A stretch of 38,686 nt of DNA from Candidatus Enterousia sp. (GTDB lineage Bacteria; Pseudomonadota; Alphaproteobacteria; Rs-D84): assembly GCA_045631065.1 (NCBI GenBank), contig JAZQUA010000037.1, forward strand, positions 1 to 38,686, given 5' to 3'. The translations under genes were made by a program, and so were the position numbers. The notes below the pieces were generated by a model. That model ran no database searches. It saw only the letters and a program-made list of their open reading frames with translations, and was not told the origin of the DNA. Below, one piece after another: positions 2,954 to 25,502 of the stretch; position 1 is the first letter of the stretch; each line of letters starts with the position of its first letter.

Positions 2954-2981
2954 AAAATCCCACCGAATGGTGGGATTTTTT
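2952..2981. terminator. Bidirectional rho-independent terminator
   Basis: AAAAATCCCACC-GAAT-GGTGGGATTTTT: a 12-bp stem with an A-run and a T-run flanking it. It lies between the convergent tatA and the 79-aa ORF. Confidence 0.8.
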
Positions 2982-3219
2982 ATCGTTGTTTTTGATTGTC
3001 ATTATGTTCTTTTTGGGTTTTGTATATTTGATATAAACGCTGTGCAGAATAAGCGAATCCAGTAATCCACATTAATAAAATGATAAGGGTTTCACGATCA
3101 TAACCTTTATCAATAAGTTGATTTGTATTGTTGACGATTCCAGCTGTGGCCATACCGTTATATACAATATATATAAGCTCTCTGGGGTTAAATAGATTCT
3201 TTTTGTTTTCTGTACTCAT
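2980..3219 (-). CDS. Hypothetical 79-aa protein with one predicted TM helix
   Basis: ORF only, with no recognisable motif and a weak Shine-Dalgarno sequence. Hydrophobic stretch LIILLMWITGFAY. Confidence 0.3.
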   Translation of the reverse strand: MSTENKKNLFNPRELIYIVYNGMATAGIVNNTNQLIDKGYDRETLIILLMWITGFAYSAQRLYQIYKTQKEHNDNQKQR

Positions 3220-18595: not shown

Positions 18596-19903
18596 TTATT
18601 TTACAAATTTACCACGTAATGATGCCTTGTTTGCATTTGTGATACAAATGTTTGCCAAAATTGGGGCAGGGGTATCATCGGTGTTTTTTTCAACAACGCA
18701 TTGTTGCATATAAGGGGTACGGTAAATCAGGTGATTGCCTGTTTTGTCTGGACCTTCCAGCAGACATTCCATTGTTTTATCAATGCAGCTGATGTTGAAT
18801 TCTCGTTGAACTTCATTTAAATAAGTGTCCAGTCTTGCAAGACGTTCTGCTTTGATGTTTTCAGGAATTTGATCTGGCATTAATGCAGCAGCTGTGTGTG
18901 GTCGTGGTGAATATTTAAATGAATAAGAATTGATGTATTTTATTTGTTCCGCGATTCGCATTGTTTGTTCGAAATCTTCATCTGTTTCGCCTGGGAATCC
19001 AACAATAAAATCAGATGATATTTGTATGTCTGGACGTGCGATTCGCAGTTTGCGAATAATGTCTGTGTACAGTTCCAATGAATAAGGACGATTCATACGC
19101 GTCAGAACATTTTGTGAACCACTTTGAATAGGCATATTTAAAAATGGTAATAATTTTGGTTCTGTTGCAAACATTTCGATTAAATCATCTGTCATTTCGG
19201 TTGGATAACTGGACGTAAATCTGATGCGTTTTACCGATTCGATTTTAGCAGCTTGACGTATTAAATCAGACAGACGATATGTGTTATCATTTTCATCTGT
19301 ATATTTATATCCGTTTACATTTTGACCCAAAAAGCATATTTCAACTGCGCCAGTGTTTGCAGCATGAATCGTGTCGCGAATACAGTCATCAAATTTACGT
19401 GATATTTCGCGACCGCGTGTGTACGGAACGATGCAGTATGTGCATACGTGATTGCATCCTTCTTGGATTGGAATGTATGCAACAGTTGGTGATTTTTCCA
19501 TTTGTGGTAATTCATCAAATTTTTCCAAACCGCCTAAATCAATGTTGAATAATTTTGCATCTGGGTTTTCTAAAATTTGTGGCAGTTTATGATAGCTTTG
19601 TGGTCCCAGAACGAAATTCAAATCTGGGATTCTGCGGAATGCATCACTGCCCGATTCGCGTGCAACACAACCGACAATGCCAAATAGGGCAGATGGCTTT
19701 TTTGCGCGTCTGATACGTCCCAGTGCAGAAAAAACTTTATCTGTTGCCTTGGCGCGAACAGCGCACGTATTTAATATGATTATGTCAGCATCGCCAACAT
19801 TGTCTGTACGGCACATTCCGCGGTGTTCAAGCATTGCGGCAATACGCCAACCATCATATACGTTCATCTGACAGCCAAAAGTTTGTATAAAGAATTTTTT
19901 CAT
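18596..19903 (-). CDS. miaB: tRNA-i6A37 methylthiotransferase MiaB
   Basis: N-terminal FIQTFGCQMNVYD, radical-SAM motif CNHVCTYCIVPYTRG, and a C-terminal TRAM domain. Confidence 0.95.
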   Translation of the reverse strand: MKKFFIQTFGCQMNVYDGWRIAAMLEHRGMCRTDNVGDADIIILNTCAVRAKATDKVFSALGRIRRAKKPSALFGIVGCVARESGSDAFRRIPDLNFVLGPQSYHKLPQILENPDAKLFNIDLGGLEKFDELPQMEKSPTVAYIPIQEGCNHVCTYCIVPYTRGREISRKFDDCIRDTIHAANTGAVEICFLGQNVNGYKYTDENDNTYRLSDLIRQAAKIESVKRIRFTSSYPTEMTDDLIEMFATEPKLLPFLNMPIQSGSQNVLTRMNRPYSLELYTDIIRKLRIARPDIQISSDFIVGFPGETDEDFEQTMRIAEQIKYINSYSFKYSPRPHTAAALMPDQIPENIKAERLARLDTYLNEVQREFNISCIDKTMECLLEGPDKTGNHLIYRTPYMQQCVVEKNTDDTPAPILANICITNANKASLRGKFVK

Positions 19904-19907
19904 GATT

Positions 19908-20075
19908 TTATTTGTGTTTTGTATTGTTGTATATTTGTTGTATGCGTTTTTGTTGTGTTTTACAGTAAGAATGTCTTATATAATTATTTCTGTGATGTTT
20001 TTCGTGACAGCGGACTTTTGCTTGTGCTTCAAATATAGCCATCTCTCGCATCATTCTAATTAAATCGTTTAACAT
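19908..20075 (-). CDS. Hypothetical 55-aa basic Cys/His-containing protein (hand translated; below the ORF-track cutoff)
   Basis: Translation is MLNDLIRMMREMAIFEAQAKVRCHEKHHRNNYIRHSYCKTQQKRIQQIYNNTKHK. The ATG lies 5 nt after the ORF142 stop with GAGG upstream. The stop lies 4 nt before the miaB ATG. Confidence 0.4.
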   Translation of the reverse strand: MLNDLIRMMREMAIFEAQAKVRCHEKHHRNNYIRHSYCKTQQKRIQQIYNNTKHK

Positions 20076-20080
20076 TTTTC

Positions 20081-20509
20081 TTACCTCGTCTTGTTTCGAA
20101 TTTTTTGATACGAATGTTTGTTATATCTTTGTTGTATTCGATTAAAATGTTTAACCGTATTTTGTGTATGATATCTACGAGCGTTTTTTTCGCTTACAGG
20201 TATTCCGGATTTAGAGGGTATTAATTTAGTTGGTGCTTCTAACATTTCAGGAATGCATTCTAATATCATTTCTTCCTCTGTCCGAAGTTTTTCAAGTTCT
20301 GATAAAAGCCCCTGTTGCGTATCATCCGATAACTGCTGTGCAATTGATATTTCAGGTTCAGGTAATATTGGTCTGGTTATGCTTTCTTGTGTTTCTGGAA
20401 TAACTATTACCTTTTCCTTGATGTGGTTATCTGTCCGAAATTTTTCAATTTCGGACAGTAATTCTTGTTTCATATCATCCACTAATTTATGTGCAAAGAT
20501 AATTATCAT
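20081..20509 (-). CDS. Hypothetical 142-aa protein with an internal duplication and a basic tail
   Basis: Repeated LLSEIEKFRTD / LLSELEKLRTE modules and a tail NRIQQRYNKHSYQKIRNKTR. The true start may instead be M13 (MKQELL). Confidence 0.5.
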   Translation of the reverse strand: MIIIFAHKLVDDMKQELLSEIEKFRTDNHIKEKVIVIPETQESITRPILPEPEISIAQQLSDDTQQGLLSELEKLRTEEEMILECIPEMLEAPTKLIPSKSGIPVSEKNARRYHTQNTVKHFNRIQQRYNKHSYQKIRNKTR

Positions 20510-20512
20510 ATC

Positions 20513-20686
20513 TTATTTTTGTTTTATGCGTTGATTGCGCAGTTGTTGCATACGTGCTTTGCTAACTTTTGCAGCTGTTTGTGTGTGTTTTTGTGATACT
20601 TTGGTGCCTGTGTCTGGAACATTAACTGTGCCATATACAACACCTGTTACATGATTGTTTTCAACGATTGCGATTATTTGTGTCAT
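20513..20686 (-). CDS. Hypothetical 57-aa protein (hand translated; below the ORF-track cutoff)
   Basis: Translation is MTQIIAIVENNHVTGVVYGTVNVPDTGTKVSQKHTQTAAKVSKARMQQLRNQRIKQK. It lies 17 nt downstream of the gatB stop with AAAGGA upstream. It is in the same frame as ORF142, separated from it by TAA-GAT. Confidence 0.4.
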   Translation of the reverse strand: MTQIIAIVENNHVTGVVYGTVNVPDTGTKVSQKHTQTAAKVSKARMQQLRNQRIKQK

Positions 20687-20703: not shown

Positions 20704-22224
20704 TTATGCTAGTTTTTTGCGTAATAATTCGTTAACAACGGCTGGGTTTGCAGTGCCAGATGTTGCTTTCATAACATTGCCAACAAAGAAGCCTAATAGC
20801 CCAACCTTGCCAGATTTGTATTGTTCAACCTGGGATGGATTGGCCGCAATTATATCATCGATGATTTTTTCAATTGCGCCAGTGTCTGTCATTTGTTTCA
20901 TACCAAATTTGTCAGCGATTTCACGTGGTGTTCCCGATTCGCCATCCAACATTTTGATAAATATTTCTTTGGCTTGTTTTCCGTTAATTGTATTTTCAGA
21001 AATCATTTCAACCAACTGTGCAATATCAGATGGTGTAATGATACGCATGCTATCCACAATGCCAGATTTTTCATTTTTTTCATCCCAGTTTTCTGGATGT
21101 GCAAATAATTCACTTATCATCCAGTTCGCTATTGCTTTGGCATGTTTTGTATTGCTGCCTACTGCTGTATCAAACCAGTGTGATATATTTGTGTTTTCTG
21201 TTAATCTGGCCGCATCATATTCAGATAGCCCAAATTCCGCCGTATAGCGCGCGCGTGTCGCAGATGGCAATTCTGGCATGTTCTTGCGGATGCTTTCAAT
21301 TTGTTCGTCTGAAATTTCAATCGGTAGTAAGTCTGGATCTGGGAAGTAACGATAATCCAGTGCGTCTTCTTTGGAGCGCATTACAGATGTTGTGCCTTCG
21401 CCTTGATTATATCTCATTGTGTCTTGACTGACAGTGCCGCCATTTTCATATGCATCAATTTGACGACGTGCCTCAAATTCAATGGCGTTTTTAATGAATT
21501 TAAAGGATACCATATTTTTGGTTTCAGTTCTGGTGCGGAATTCTGTTGAACCAACAGGGCGTACAGATACATTTACGTCTGCGCGCATTGATCCTTCTTC
21601 CATATTTGCGCGGGATACACCCAGTGCGCGTGCAATTTCGCGAATTTCACGCAGATAACGTTCTGCTTCGTCTGGGGATGAAATGTAAGAATTGTTTTCT
21701 GGATTTTTTGTGTCCAAGAAAGTTACAATTTCCAACAAGGCAACGCCTGTACGGTTATAGTCAGCAAAGGATTTTGTTGGGTGTACATCATGTTTTAATT
21801 TTCCTGCATCTTGTTCCAAGTGTGCGCGTTCAATTAAAATCTTTTTTGGATTTCCATCGTCGCCCATAATTTCAACCCAGCCACGACCAACAACAGGTGG
21901 TTCGTCCGCTGGTTGTGAAATCTGATAGCCTTGGGGCAGGTCAGGGTAGAAATATTGTTTACGTGCAAAACGACTGTGCCGGGAAATTTCAGCATTCAAA
22001 CCCAATCCCATTTTAATTGCCTGTTCAACACAGTATTCGTTTAATACAGGTAACATGCCTGGCATTGCAACATCAATCATTGAAACCTGGGTGTTTGGGG
22101 ATACCGTCGGGTTATAGTCTGCAGATGCACCGCTGAATAATTTTGATTCGGATAACACTTCGATATGTGTTTCCAAGCCAATTACTAATTCCCAATCGCC
22201 TGTTTTGCCTTTTATTGTGAACAT
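20704..22224 (-). CDS. gatB: Asp-tRNA(Asn)/Glu-tRNA(Gln) amidotransferase subunit B
   Basis: WELVIGLETHIEV, PGMLPVLN, and a C-terminal YqeY-like tail (GFFVGNVMKATSGTANP). Length is 506 aa. Confidence 0.95.
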   Translation of the reverse strand: MFTIKGKTGDWELVIGLETHIEVLSESKLFSGASADYNPTVSPNTQVSMIDVAMPGMLPVLNEYCVEQAIKMGLGLNAEISRHSRFARKQYFYPDLPQGYQISQPADEPPVVGRGWVEIMGDDGNPKKILIERAHLEQDAGKLKHDVHPTKSFADYNRTGVALLEIVTFLDTKNPENNSYISSPDEAERYLREIREIARALGVSRANMEEGSMRADVNVSVRPVGSTEFRTRTETKNMVSFKFIKNAIEFEARRQIDAYENGGTVSQDTMRYNQGEGTTSVMRSKEDALDYRYFPDPDLLPIEISDEQIESIRKNMPELPSATRARYTAEFGLSEYDAARLTENTNISHWFDTAVGSNTKHAKAIANWMISELFAHPENWDEKNEKSGIVDSMRIITPSDIAQLVEMISENTINGKQAKEIFIKMLDGESGTPREIADKFGMKQMTDTGAIEKIIDDIIAANPSQVEQYKSGKVGLLGFFVGNVMKATSGTANPAVVNELLRKKLA

Positions 22225-22279: not shown

Positions 22280-22355
22280 GGCTAGGTAGCTCAGTTGGTA
22301 GAGCAAGGGACTGAAAATCCCTGTGTCGGCGGTTCGATTCCGTCCCTAGCCACCA
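22280..22355 (+). tRNA. tRNA-Phe (anticodon GAA), CCA encoded
   Basis: Acceptor GGCTAGG/CCTAGCC, D stem GCTC/GAGC, anticodon stem AGGGA/TCCCT with loop CTGAAAA, T stem GGCGG/CCGTC with TTCGATT. Length is 76 nt. Confidence 0.95.
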
Positions 22356-22424: not shown

Positions 22425-23891
22425 TTATTTTCCCATAATTGTTGTTGGGCGGTTGTCAACAGATGCTGCTGATTCAATATGTTTTGCCAATTGCAGAACG
22501 CGCATATCTGCAAAACGTGGACCAACAACCTGCATTCCCAGTGGCAGACCGTTTTGTGCCAGACCGCATGGTACACTGCATGCAGGGATGCCTGCCAGAT
22601 TCATTGCAACTGTGAATAAATCCAATGCATAGAATTCCAATGGTGACAGTGATGCATCCAATGGCATCGCGGTACCTGCGGATGCAGGGCATACGATTAA
22701 GTCGCATTGTTCAAATGCAGAATTAAAGCTGTCTGCAATCATACGACGCACGCGTGCAGCCTGCATAAAATATACGTCATACGATTCGCTGGACAGTACC
22801 GCTGTGCCAATAATCATACGACGTTTTACTTCGTCGCCAAAGCCAGCAGCACGTGTTTTTTTGTATGTGTCATATATGTCTTTGCCTTCGACCCGCAGAC
22901 CGTAACGCATACCGTCATAACGTGCTAAATTCGAAGATGCTTCGGCTGGGGCGATAATATAGTAAGCGGCCAATGCATCCAAAATGTTTGGAATTGAAAC
23001 TTCAACAATTTCTGCGCCCATAGACTTTAAATCTGCAATACGTTTTTCAAATAATGATTTCATGTCATCTGATATTTCAACGTCTGCAAATTCTTTGATA
23101 ATACCAATACGTAGTTTTTTTCCGTTGCCCAAAATTGGTTCCAGTGATTTTGTGCAGTTAAAACCATTTGTTGCACTGGTTGAATCTTTTGGATCGTGAC
23201 CTGCCATACATGATAACATTAATGCTGCATCATCAACCGTACGTGTAATGGGTCCTGGTGTGTCCAAAGAAGATGCAAATGCAACACAGCCCCAACGTGA
23301 ACACAGACCGTATGTAGGTTTCATACCAACCATACCGGTAATTGCCGCAGGAAAACGAATTGAACCACCTGTGTCTGTGCCTGTTGCGCATAATGCCAAA
23401 CCGCCAGCAACTGCAGATGTTGAACCGCCAGATGAACCACCAGCAGTTAAATGTTTTTCCAACTGCCATGGATTGACAGGCGCACCAAAGAAACTGGTCT
23501 TGCTGAAAGTTCCCATCGCAAATTCGTCTAAATTTGCCTTGCCCAGTAATACAGTGCCAGAATCAATCAATTTTTGAGAAACAGTCGATTCGTATTCAGG
23601 TACAAAATTTTCCAGTATACGTGATGCAGCAGTTGTGCGAATGCCACGTGTTGCAAACAAGTCTTTCATTGCCATTGGAATCCCGTCCAGTGGTAATGCG
23701 TTGCCCGCTGCACGTCTGGCATCAGATGCAGCAGCGTCTGCCATGGCGCGTTCTGGGGTAACGGTAATATAGCAATTTAAATCAGCGCCGTATTGTTCAA
23801 TGCGGTTTAAGTATGCTTTTGTTAATTCAACAGACGTGATTTCACCACTGTTTAATTTTTCTAAGGCTTCGGTTATTGTTAGATTTATCAT
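22425..23891 (-). CDS. gatA: Glu-tRNA(Gln)/Asp-tRNA(Asn) amidotransferase subunit A
   Basis: Amidase signature GGSSGGS...GTDTGGSIR. The start is set at MINLTITEAL (23891). The track ORF extends 33 codons further upstream into the preceding gene. Confidence 0.95.
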   Translation of the reverse strand: MINLTITEALEKLNSGEITSVELTKAYLNRIEQYGADLNCYITVTPERAMADAAASDARRAAGNALPLDGIPMAMKDLFATRGIRTTAASRILENFVPEYESTVSQKLIDSGTVLLGKANLDEFAMGTFSKTSFFGAPVNPWQLEKHLTAGGSSGGSTSAVAGGLALCATGTDTGGSIRFPAAITGMVGMKPTYGLCSRWGCVAFASSLDTPGPITRTVDDAALMLSCMAGHDPKDSTSATNGFNCTKSLEPILGNGKKLRIGIIKEFADVEISDDMKSLFEKRIADLKSMGAEIVEVSIPNILDALAAYYIIAPAEASSNLARYDGMRYGLRVEGKDIYDTYKKTRAAGFGDEVKRRMIIGTAVLSSESYDVYFMQAARVRRMIADSFNSAFEQCDLIVCPASAGTAMPLDASLSPLEFYALDLFTVAMNLAGIPACSVPCGLAQNGLPLGMQVVGPRFADMRVLQLAKHIESAASVDNRPTTIMGK

Positions 23892-24304
23892 TTTTGCTTT
23901 CCGTAGTGTTGTGGGAACAATGCTGTGCCCAGTGTGTTTTTTATAAATTCGTCTTGGCATTTGCCGCCACGTAAATTGCGCGCGCAGCATTTTGCTTTTG
24001 CTAAATCATCATTTTTACATTTTGCACATTGTGGTTTATAGTCAGGAAAGAACATGCCGGTTATATTTAGATTGCCATGTTTTTGTCCATATGTTTTAAA
24101 TGGTTCAAAATTCACAATGTCTGTGTAACTTACTTGTAATGATTTAAGACACGCTTTTTTTGTAGAGCGGCTGTTTCTGAATTGTTCGATTAATTCAAGC
24201 GCTTTGCTTTGTGTAATGCAGCCAAGCTTGATTGTTTGTGGAAAATCATTATATTGCTCGTACACTAAAAAATTGACAGGAATATTGTTTGTTTTTTTAG
24301 ACAT
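23888..24304 (-). CDS. Uncharacterised Cys-rich 138-aa protein, paralogue of the next ORF
   Basis: GAGGAA Shine-Dalgarno sequence. The stop overlaps the gatA ATG (ATGA). C-terminus is CAKCKNDDLAKAKCCARNLRGGKCQDEFIKNTLGTALFPQHYGKQK. Confidence 0.6.
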   Translation of the reverse strand: MSKKTNNIPVNFLVYEQYNDFPQTIKLGCITQSKALELIEQFRNSRSTKKACLKSLQVSYTDIVNFEPFKTYGQKHGNLNITGMFFPDYKPQCAKCKNDDLAKAKCCARNLRGGKCQDEFIKNTLGTALFPQHYGKQK

Positions 24305-24316
24305 GATATTCCTCTG

Positions 24317-24715
24317 TTATTTTTGTTTTTCATTTGCATAGTGTTGTGGAAACAACACTGCGCCCACAGTTCTGCGGACGAATTCATCTTTGCATTTTCC
24401 GCATTGCAAATTATCAAAGCAACTTTGTGTTTTTTCATAAGTTGATTTATTAAAAACATTAAGGTTGGGTTGACATCTTAGCTTGTCAATATGCGCCATA
24501 CCATTAAGTGTTAATTCACTATGTGCACTGGTGTGTCTTGGTATGTTTAAAATGCTTGTTTGCATATTAACATTAAAACATTGTGCAACACACGTTGCCA
24601 ATTTAATATCTGTATTTTTTAACAGGCTTAATAATTCAACCACGTCATTTGCAGACACTTCCAACTTTAAATTAGTTAAGTATGGAATAATTATTCTTAT
24701 TCTTGAATCTTTCAT
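24317..24715 (-). CDS. Uncharacterised Cys-rich 132-aa protein, paralogue of the previous ORF
   Basis: The ATG lies 3 nt after the gatC stop. C-terminus is SCFDNLQCGKCKDEFVRRTVGAVLFPQHYANEKQK. Confidence 0.6.
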   Translation of the reverse strand: MKDSRIRIIIPYLTNLKLEVSANDVVELLSLLKNTDIKLATCVAQCFNVNMQTSILNIPRHTSAHSELTLNGMAHIDKLRCQPNLNVFNKSTYEKTQSCFDNLQCGKCKDEFVRRTVGAVLFPQHYANEKQK

Positions 24716-24718
24716 TTC

Positions 24719-25021
24719 TTATTCCCCATCCATTACTTTTGGTACTGCAAAATAACCACGTGATGTGCCAGAATTATCAGGGGTGTTTGCCAAAACTAAA
24801 TCACGAATATTTCCATCCGTTACAACGTCTTCGCGTTTTGGTAATTTATGTTCCGATGGATTTAACATAGGTTTAACGCCAGTTGTGTCAATTTTTTGTA
24901 GTTTTTCCAACCATTCAACGACTGAATCAATATTCATTTCCGCCAGTTTTTCATCAGATATTTCAATTTTGATTAAATCTGCGAATTTTTGTAATTGTTG
25001 CTTGCTAAATGCCATTTTCAA
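24719..25021 (-). CDS. gatC: Asp/Glu-tRNA amidotransferase subunit C
   Basis: About 100 aa. LAEMNIDSVVEWLEKLQKIDTTGVKPM...REDVV is typical of GatC. The start may instead be the ATG at 25015. Confidence 0.9.
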   Translation of the reverse strand: MKMAFSKQQLQKFADLIKIEISDEKLAEMNIDSVVEWLEKLQKIDTTGVKPMLNPSEHKLPKREDVVTDGNIRDLVLANTPDNSGTSRGYFAVPKVMDGE

Positions 25022-25052
25022 TCCTATATTTGTAAAGTAAAGGAATTATACA

Positions 25053-25502
25053 ATGATTTTGGCAGATTTCAAGGCTTTTCCGCGCACAGGACGTTTTTTA
25101 GGTGTTGACTGGGGGTTGACCAGAATAGGGGTTGCAGTATCTGACCCGTCTGGTGAATTTGTTTTTACTAGACCTGTGGTGGTTGTGGCACGTGGTGCAG
25201 CAAATCATGCAGATGTTGTTGCGCAAATTGCCAAGGAAGAAGGGGTTGTTGGTATTGTTGTTGGACTGCCTGTTCGAAATGATGGGACGGAATCTGATAC
25301 AACAAAAATGGTGCGTGATTTTGTAAGTAACTTGGTAACTAAAACAGATTTGCCGATTTGTATGATAGAAGAAAATTTAACGTCTGTTGTTGCCCAGGAA
25401 TCTATGGGGCGGGTCAGGGTGCATGACATTAAACAAAAGTTAGATTCTGAATCAGCACGTGTGATTTTGGAAAATGCAATTGCAATAATAAAACGGGCGT
25501 AG
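25053..25502 (+). CDS. ruvX: YqgF/RuvX putative pre-16S rRNA nuclease (Holliday junction resolvase-like)
   Basis: GVDWGLTRIGVAVSD and GIVVGLP motifs. Length is 149 aa. Confidence 0.9.
   Translation: MILADFKAFPRTGRFLGVDWGLTRIGVAVSDPSGEFVFTRPVVVVARGAANHADVVAQIAKEEGVVGIVVGLPVRNDGTESDTTKMVRDFVSNLVTKTDLPICMIEENLTSVVAQESMGRVRVHDIKQKLDSESARVILENAIAIIKRA

Follow-up and report, generated by a model that had tools for sequence, protein, structure and literature searches.

Adjacency of gatC and gatA is among the most stable gene pairings in bacteria. In a contig of Candidatus Enterousia sp. (JAZQUA010000037.1), which at its full length of 38,686 nucleotides (nt) is the window analyzed here, this pairing is interrupted by two small Cys-rich open reading frames (ORFs), ORF132 and ORF138, named for their lengths in amino acids (aa). 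We asked whether these ORFs are genes, to what family they belong, and whether their products are likely to work with GatCAB. Conservation among relatives indicates that ORF132 and ORF138 are real and probably expressed genes, two paralogues from a family not described before and marked by four Cys residues, and that the interruption is old; a dedicated role in GatCAB is not the reading that we favor.

Two small genes between gatC and gatA

The genes gatC, ORF132, ORF138, and gatA all lie on the minus strand and are tightly packed. gatC (24719-25021; Pfam GatC, E=4e-12) starts at TTG 25021, or at ATG 25015 as called in relatives, and ends in a TAA at 24719-24721. The ATG of ORF132 (24317-24715; ATG 24715, TAA 24317-24319) follows 3 nt past this stop, with a Shine-Dalgarno-like GGGGA (24723-24727) upstream of it, and a 12-nt spacer (24305-24316, minus strand; CAGAGGAATATC) then holds GAGGAA, read from the sequence as the Shine-Dalgarno motif of ORF138 (23888-24304; ATG 24304, TGA 23888-23890). 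At the far end, the TGA of ORF138 overlaps the gatA ATG (23889-23891) in the tetranucleotide ATGA, and the last codons of ORF138 (23888-23902, minus strand) would form the translation-initiation region of gatA, with GGAAAG (23897-23902) standing 5 nt before the gatA ATG. gatA (22425-23891) matches Pfam Amidase at E=3e-139 and encodes 488 aa in all relatives. An earlier, sequence-only reading of the window had described this same-strand arrangement, including both spacings, GAGGAA, and ATGA, and every element of it was confirmed on the sequence. The same reading had drawn attention to the common frame of gatC, ORF132, and ORF138. The three do share one reading frame here, but the relation is not kept in relatives and is therefore a coincidence without further meaning; a read-through polyprotein, which the shared frame had suggested, was rejected on the same ground.

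The two ORFs are also related to each other, as had been proposed: BLASTP aligns them at 29% identity over 117 residues (E=7e-15). In the best 28-nt stretch of their 3' ends, 24 of 28 bases are identical and all four differences are transitions, exactly as first counted by hand. Across the 28-codon motif, third codon positions agree at only 14 of 28 sites, so the similarity has been kept at the protein level, and recent gene conversion between the paralogous 3' ends is ruled out.

A word-indexed search found 23 homologues for ORF138 and 7 for ORF132. By the Nei-Gojobori method, the ratio of nonsynonymous to synonymous divergence (dN/dS) against orthologues was 0.17-0.28 for ORF138 and 0.12-0.26 for ORF132, with 0.04-0.11 for gatC, gatA, and gatB in the same pairs; the values for the two ORFs are thus about 0.2, not near 1. 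When the genes were split at Cys107, dN/dS stayed below 0.33 in both halves for all 12 pairs, and positive selection, for which neither the N-terminal nor the C-terminal part gave any sign, was set aside. The dN of the family genes is 3-10 times that of GatC/A/B. G+C content at third codon positions (GC3) is 0.26 and 0.31 in the two ORFs versus 0.25-0.34 in the flanking genes. Homologues in dozens of related genomes, with intact orthologues in more than 40 loci, together with dN/dS of 0.12-0.28, argue that ORF132 and ORF138 are real, paralogous, operon-embedded genes, evidently under purifying selection that is some 3-5 times more relaxed than on gatCAB. No further family copies besides these two were found in the 38.7-kb window.

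The four-Cys family and its predicted fold

Searched exhaustively with a family profile, a set of 1.84 billion representative proteins yielded 212 clusters at E≤1e-3, 96 of them at E≤1e-10; the clusters, defined at the 50% identity level, are nearly all 120-170 aa long. The family statistics given here come from a 147-member alignment (A3) with a mean column identity of 17%, whose profile recovers ORF138 at E=2.4e-42 and ORF132 at E=1.4e-32 by hmmsearch. Three residues are invariant in it, G114, C116, and Y134 (ORF138 numbering); C52, C93, and C107 each occur in 99% of the sequences, all four Cys are kept in 144 of the 147, and G126 and P131 stand at 93%. The Cys spacing is 41/14/9 residues, and a second Cys three residues past C93 is found in only 19/147 members. 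Cys42, Cys81, Cys99, and Cys108 of ORF132 align with the family's four conserved Cys, and both ORFs carry the full signature of membership: the four Cys, G114/C116/Y134, and the profile match. The C-terminal motif reads C-x2-N-[LI]-x2-G-K-C-x-D-x-F-[IM]-R-x-T-[LI]-G-x2-L-[FY]-P-x2-Y and is followed by a short basic tail; in ORF132 this conserved module comprises residues 99-132 (24320-24421). ORF132 ends in EKQK and ORF138 in YGKQK, and across the alignment the tails are KQK in 60 members, KTK in 16, KVK in 10, and KQR in 8, with Lys or Arg as the last residue in 141/147. The median isoelectric point (pI) of the family is 8.9. The Asp of GKCxD (D118) is replaced by Cys in 15/147 members and by Asn in 7/147, and interchange of Asp and Cys is typical of a metal-ligand position. 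Inspection of the protein sequences found no signal-peptide-like hydrophobic stretch at the N terminus, which makes structural disulfides unlikely.

The family had not been recognized by eye, and database searches likewise found no known family to which it belongs. Pfam gave 0 families at E≤1 for both ORFs, NCBIfam and PHROGs gave no match to either, and PADLOC-DB had no match to ORF132 and just MTase_II for ORF138 (E=0.023, 12 bits), so that neither ORF qualifies as a known defense or toxin-antitoxin component by PADLOC-DB. Across the 147 members, Pfam and PHROGs returned no recurring weak match, and the best matches among PDB sequence profiles were the BAG1 ubiquitin-like domain (E=0.08) and lysozyme (E=0.8). 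Origin by gatC duplication, or kinship with the other small ORFs of the gene string, was rejected on hhalign probabilities of at most 0.5% (0.2% for the family against a 35-sequence GatC alignment). The named sources of family members are without exception metagenome-assembled genomes (MAGs) of gut Alphaproteobacteria (Candidatus Enterousia, order Rs-D84, genomes smaller than 1 Mb), and every database copy with a named source is annotated as a hypothetical protein.

Given the 147-sequence alignment, AlphaFold2 modeled ORF138 with a predicted local distance difference test (pLDDT) score of 86.7 and a predicted template-modeling score (pTM) of 0.79. The predicted fold is one compact domain, in which a four-stranded beta-beta-alpha-beta-beta sheet (strands 8-14, 23-30, 57-65, and 74-82, helix 32-44 separating the first pair of strands from the second) packs on three C-terminal helices (100-112, 119-129, and 131-137). 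A Foldseek search of the PDB with this model returned nothing significant (best E=0.23, template-modeling [TM] score <0.27), and a first model (pLDDT 78) had no significant neighbor in the PDB or BFVD; counting the PDB searches with both models and the BFVD search with the first, no match fell below E=0.02 or rose above a query-normalized TM of 0.32. The weak, insignificant matches from Foldseek and the PDB profiles are to ubiquitin-like, beta-grasp, DIX, Ras-binding, and ferredoxin domains (E≥0.08, TM<0.3). Family and predicted fold thus appear to be new, matched by no curated family or solved structure in the libraries searched.

The nearest known systems are, on these comparisons, analogies, each of which parts from the family on a defining feature. 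GatC (PF02686) and GatF of yeast mitochondria are small scaffold proteins of tRNA-dependent amidotransferases, encoded among the gat genes or functionally linked to them, and the translational coupling of ORF132 and ORF138 to gatC and gatA is what subunit genes would show; in contrast, the four-Cys proteins form a compact predicted sheet-plus-helix domain without sequence kinship to these subunits, a normal gatC lies alongside, and members are also found away from the gat genes. Hp0100, a QueH protein, is larger than 130-140 aa and is not known to be encoded within the gatCAB operon. It offers a precedent for GatCAB recruiting a lineage-specific, Cys-containing accessory protein, and queH lies a few kb from the family copies linked to accC (see below); unlike Hp0100, the four-Cys family has no match to QueH/DUF208 (PF02677), either in the two ORFs or in the 147 members. 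In Helicobacter pylori, Hp0100 stimulates GatCAB and nucleates a tRNA-independent Asn-transamidosome (as summarized in PMC8406222).

The WhiB-like (Wbl) proteins of Actinobacteria serve as an analogy only: they too are small and lineage restricted, with several paralogues per genome, four invariant Cys, a helical C-terminal part with a conserved turn that contains Gly, and a tail of basic residues at the C terminus. Their Cys spacing is C-x(14-22)-C-x2-C-x5-C. Neither this pattern nor the G[VI]WGG motif occurs in A3, and the four-Cys family differs in its own spacing, in its predicted N-terminal beta-sheet, and in having no Pfam match to PF02467. Beta-grasp [2Fe-2S] ferredoxins and ubiquitin-like domains resemble the family in the predicted N-terminal beta-beta-alpha-beta-beta arrangement, and ferredoxins are likewise small with four conserved Cys; in the four-Cys family, however, the Cys lie mostly in the C-terminal helical part, the CX4CX2C loop is absent, the proteins are basic where ferredoxins are acidic, Pfam finds no PF00111, and Foldseek similarity to the ferredoxin 1rfk_B is poor (E=1.8, TM 0.16-0.21). 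The Fer2, Fer4, and Fe-S_biosyn models of Pfam have no match either, and the features of C4 zinc ribbons and DksA-TraR zinc fingers, a pair of CxxC knuckles and a profile match, were not found, a weak DZR match (E=0.07) occurring in one relative only. Finally, free-standing homing-endonuclease genes and the "morons" of phages are also small ORFs packed between essential conserved genes and vary in number among relatives. The four-Cys genes, in contrast, sit on a cellular chromosome, match no nuclease profile (HNH and GIY-YIG included), have a core copy that appears vertical and ancient, and are absent from the viral collections searched.

Occupancy of the gatC-gatA slot and copies elsewhere

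A scan of GTDB species genomes yielded 24 loci, all from Candidatus Enterousia or Alphaproteobacteria MAGs of animal guts. The usual direct gatC-gatA adjacency is broken in all 24, and in 23 of them the slot holds a gene of the ORF138 type, the widely conserved resident that we call A1; checked in relatives, the homologues are thus gat-linked again. Orthologues of ORF132 (A2) occur only in the window's own clade (loci L004-L007 and L050), and ORF132 appears to be a clade-specific tandem paralogue. Extra slot genes of other clades are a different family member, a member of the 92-aa family "B," a 214-aa ORF, or a member of family "C," a stand-alone protein resembling the C-terminal domain (CTD) of the RNA polymerase alpha subunit and bearing a C-terminal coiled coil (PF03118, E=9e-10; L010 7102-7584, L015 8447-8929, L022 8433-8906, and L026 8433-8948). 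Three tandem family members share the slot in L030, L042, and L048 and at least five in L038; overall, family copy number in the slot runs from 0 to at least 5, with unrelated small ORFs besides. One database protein, P0050, fuses a four-Cys member to an alpha-CTD-like domain; this fusion and the nested family C hint at a connection to transcription or DNA, and such fusions may be read-through of adjacent genes.

Two loci bear most directly on the age and the weight of the insertion. In L049, GatA and GatC are only 60% and 56% identical to the window's, and a 131-aa family member nonetheless follows gatC there, with gatA and then gatB coming after it; because so divergent a locus keeps it, the slot insertion is old. 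GatC identity across Enterousia loci is 84-96%, and L027, with GatC 92% and GatA 89% identical to the window's, is like its neighbors in this respect. In L027 (JAFVSL010000008.1), the one genome that lacks the gene, A1 has been deleted except for its last 17 codons (KNTLGAILFPQHYGKQK*; L027 8003-8053), which precede and overlap the gatA start (ATGA). Exactly these codons being kept, the 3' end of A1 would serve as the translation-initiation region of gatA, and the four-Cys protein appears to be dispensable, at least in L027. As a separate observation, L002 (5593-6612) and L018 (offset +2000) are near-identical apart from 38 substitutions in 1.7 kb, of which 33 fall into three patches, at the gatC 3' end, the four-Cys 3' motif, and the 5' end of the next paralogue; the patches look like short-tract recombination between strains.

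By neighbor-joining, the A1 tree matches the GatA tree at the clade level, with incongruences at L011 and L012, and the secondary genes are clade specific with some patchiness. No family copy was found in IMG/VR (two scans), among INPHARED phages, or among PLSDB plasmids. The slot gene thus appears to have been inherited mostly vertically, and the family appears to be restricted to Rs-D84/Enterousia. A phage, plasmid, or mobile origin was rejected on these null searches and the native GC3, and the hitchhiking cassette entertained by the sequence-only reading fares poorly on the same evidence, with an A1 tree that broadly follows GatA and a GC3 like that of the flanks. Candidatus Enterousia belongs to the uncultured order Rs-D84, whose genomes are mostly smaller than 1 Mb and lack the tricarboxylic acid cycle, respiration, and parts of glycolysis, and for which a partner-dependent lifestyle has been proposed (PMC12306168). 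Retention of a family that looks nonessential in genomes of this size argues for function.

Members also turn up away from the gat genes. Among 57 family-bearing loci, a sample biased towards A1, 43 are gat-linked, 3 are accC-linked, 3 lie elsewhere, and 8 are too short to be placed; in a degenerate DNA pattern scan of JGI metagenomes, which was independent of the N-terminal part, at least 11 of 18 were gat-linked. Three tandem copies stand right after accB-accC, upstream of tRNA-Val and metG, in L031 (79.9-kb contig) and L032 (409-kb contig), and L037 (290-kb contig) has two at the same post-accC site; the distance from the accC-linked copies to queH is about 3 kb. L036 has one copy between fabD and pheT, L040 a stand-alone copy with large intergenic regions and TspO-like and TolC-like genes on either side, and L033 a 319-aa member in a glycosyltransferase region. 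In L029, downstream of an outer-membrane protein gene, members are fused to a weak N-terminal domain resembling acyl carrier protein (ACP). This defines a second locus type (L029 1155-2421; also L028, L039, L053, and L056), in which the ACP-like member (GMDSLD; PP-binding, E=0.008) is accompanied by a downstream ORF opening with CxxCxxxC. The database protein P0175 joins this CxxCxxxC Cys-rich domain and a family member in one chain.

In the window, the four-Cys genes are part of a longer gene string, ordered sufB/C ... gatC-A-A-gatA-gatB-...-miaB (A being a four-Cys family gene), in which GatC, GatA, and GatB are of ordinary length and domain content. The strongest promoter-like site here, and the only promoter match found, is a sigma-70-like TTGAAA-16-TATAAT just upstream of gatC (25045-25072, minus strand); it agrees with the consensus at 11/12 positions, a consensus match only, and is likely the promoter of a gatC-ORF132-ORF138-gatA transcript. 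No terminator with a convincing T-tract was found inside the slot, and a structured RNA or riboswitch in the slot was rejected, since the RNA search found only the tRNA of the gatA-gatB spacer. The plus-strand gene ruvX (start 25053) and gatC are divergent, and since only ~31-37 nt separate their starts, the best gat promoter match overlaps the ruvX 5' end. Downstream, gatB (20704-22224, minus strand) is separated from gatA by a spacer that carries tRNA-Phe(GAA) antisense (22280-22355, plus strand), splitting the gat genes into the units gatC-...-gatA and gatB-...-miaB. This antisense tRNA-Phe was present in 13/13 Enterousia-like loci checked and is absent in the distant L049, where gatA abuts gatB. 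Between gatA and the antisense tRNA-Phe, one clade (L002 8377-9657 and L018 10377-11657) carries a 426-aa ORF with a KQK end and only a faint match to the ATP-grasp family R2K_3 (E=0.15).

Three further small ORFs (19908-20686, minus strand) lie between gatB and the MiaB-like radical-SAM gene (18596-19903, minus strand) that ends the string: o57 (20513-20686), o142 (20081-20509), and o55 (19908-20075). They form a second nest of lineage-specific small ORFs, unrelated to the four-Cys family and without Pfam match. Throughout the genus, o57 and o55 each have a conserved family (hhalign to the L002 counterparts, 99.9% and 90.5%), o142 is optional, and o57 has dN/dS of 0.3-0.97 and a KQK end. Basic tails (KQK, KQR, KTK, NTK, and xQR) in fact recur on unrelated lineage-specific small ORFs, in the window at 2980-3219, 20513-20686, and 23888-24715 (all minus strand) and in many other loci, with KQK also on the 426-aa and 214-aa ORFs; the window's housekeeping genes have no such tails. 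These shared tails may be a protein-level signal or may simply reflect A-rich DNA before the next start codon.

Readings of the family's role

The reading we prefer, to which we give about an even chance of being right, is that the four-Cys family is a general module of small proteins, metal-binding or regulatory, for which essential operons serve as platforms of expression, rather than a subunit dedicated to GatCAB. Its four near-invariant Cys and Asp/Cys118 would ligate a metal, either Zn or an Fe-S cluster, and so cross-brace the sheet to the helices, and the basic surface and Lys/Arg-ended tail would contact a polyanionic partner, whether nucleic acid or an acidic protein. Through translational coupling, the protein would be made at a set ratio to GatC and GatA, and with its 3' end turned into the gatA ribosome-binding site, the gene would be locked in place. 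The platforms would be the gatC-gatA pair and the 3' end of accBC, essential and constitutively expressed operons. That the family is not Gat-specific is argued by the copies at accBC, at fabD, and standing alone, by slot copy numbers of 0 to at least 5, and by the loss in L027.

Several points weigh against this reading. The deletion in L027 is known from one MAG only and may be an artifact of assembly or of strain, and most of the sampled family diversity (43/57 loci, partly through biased sampling) is found in the gatC-gatA slot. To be translationally coupled between the genes for two parts of the same complex is the classic situation of a subunit gene. Synteny is conserved over the whole region among these genomes, so that position cannot separate a passenger from a partner and says only that the gene has been retained. 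The metal binding that the sequence-only reading had suspected is plausible, given four Cys in 144/147 members and the Asp-to-Cys change at GKCxD in 15/147, but the 41/14/9 spacing fits no known Zn or Fe-S motif. What we propose about transcription, translation, metal content, and partner draws on sequence and a predicted model.

The sequence-only reading had also raised an accessory factor of Asn/Gln-tRNA formation, a role that our data neither show nor favor. A protein devoted in this way to GatCAB or the transamidosome, whether as an accessory or as a fourth subunit, would attach to GatC/GatA or to mischarged tRNA and aid assembly, tRNA hand-off, or the regulation of amidation, in a role like that of Hp0100 in H. 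pylori or GatF in yeast mitochondria; the paralogues elsewhere would have diverged to other partners. We consider this unlikely, if far from negligible. The slot position is kept in 23/24 species genomes and even in L049, coupling to both neighbors implies stoichiometric synthesis, further divergent representatives with enough flank are all gat-linked (P0178, P0179, P0039, P0211, and P0120), the basic character and Lys tail are compatible with tRNA binding, and Hp0100/QueH shows that an additional protein can stimulate GatCAB and stabilize a transamidosome (PMC8406222). Such a subunit is hard to reconcile, however, with members that follow accBC, lie beside fabD, or stand alone, with a slot copy number of 0 to at least 5 among co-nested unrelated small ORFs, with dN 3-10 times that of GatC/A/B, and with a deletion in L027 that left gatCAB unchanged, GatC and GatA showing nothing unusual; nor do the normal GatC, GatA, and GatB leave anything obvious to compensate, and there is no homology to GatC (hhalign 0.2%). 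A bolder form, in which a metal-dependent (Zn/Fe-S) fourth component of GatCAB or the transamidosome in Rs-D84 couples Asn/Gln-tRNA formation to metal or redox state or takes on tRNA hand-off, with paralogues at other essential complexes such as acetyl-CoA carboxylase and a fold without a solved match, strikes us as a little less likely again. Paralogues beside different enzymes are, on the other hand, typical of ferredoxins, and the family could be a lineage-specific Fe-S protein, an electron donor or cluster carrier for the MiaB-like enzyme of the same string and for QueH downstream of the accBC nest. The four near-invariant Cys and the Asp/Cys interchange at 118 fit this idea, as do the beta-grasp-like N-terminal beta-beta-alpha-beta-beta with its weak Foldseek matches to ubiquitin-like and [2Fe-2S] ferredoxin domains, a gene string that spans sufB/C to miaB, and queH near the accC-linked copies. 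Yet the Cys spacing is unlike that of a ferredoxin, Nfu, or A-type carrier, Pfam finds no Fer2/Fer4/Fe-S_biosyn match, the Foldseek likeness is insignificant (E>0.2, TM<0.3), a basic pI is unusual for ferredoxins, the family genes do not adjoin miaB or queH, and their fast evolution is unlike that of core redox carriers, all of which makes an Fe-S carrier improbable.

More improbable still are conflict-driven or selfish genes, that is, mobile or homing-like cassettes, orphan immunity genes, or partner-directed effectors that diversify by an arms race. Close relatives do differ in what the slot contains (from 0 to at least 5 four-Cys genes, along with members of families B and C and ORFs of 214 and 426 aa), tandem arrays occur in L030, L038, L042, and L048, divergence is high relative to the flanks, secondary cassettes are patchy, L011 and L012 are incongruent, L002/L018 look like short-tract recombination mosaics, and Rs-D84 is thought to be partner dependent (PMC12306168). 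Set against this are dN/dS values that stay under 0.33 in each half of the gene and give no hint of positive selection, an A1 tree broadly congruent with GatA, and native composition; there are no phage, plasmid, or viral-contig copies, no nuclease, toxin, or defense domain, no evident secretion signal, and no repeats or recombination sites, and the spacers are 3-15 nt. As for nonfunctional ORFs, whether chance frames, decaying pseudogenes, or annotation artifacts, the genes are known from sequence alone and their source-named database copies are all hypothetical proteins, but conservation statistics effectively refute this reading: intact orthologues in more than 40 loci at dN/dS of ~0.2, Cys, Gly, and Tyr positions that do not vary in an alignment of 17% mean column identity, a confident AlphaFold model, and retention in genomes below 1 Mb (PMC12306168) leave it hardly credible.

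At this locus, an orphan family has long resided between gatC and gatA in genomes of less than 1 Mb that otherwise shed dispensable genes. Interruption of this gene pair by an ancient orphan family is notable, and it would take biochemistry to make it paradigm-shifting. Should the protein work with GatCAB after all, indirect tRNA aminoacylation would gain a new component; otherwise, the locus would be a clean example of new small genes fixed by being wired into the translational coupling of an essential operon, their 3' ends turned into the ribosome-binding site of the gene next door. Either way, the 138-aa protein offers a concrete and cheap target for work on the uncultured, partner-dependent Rs-D84 lineage.

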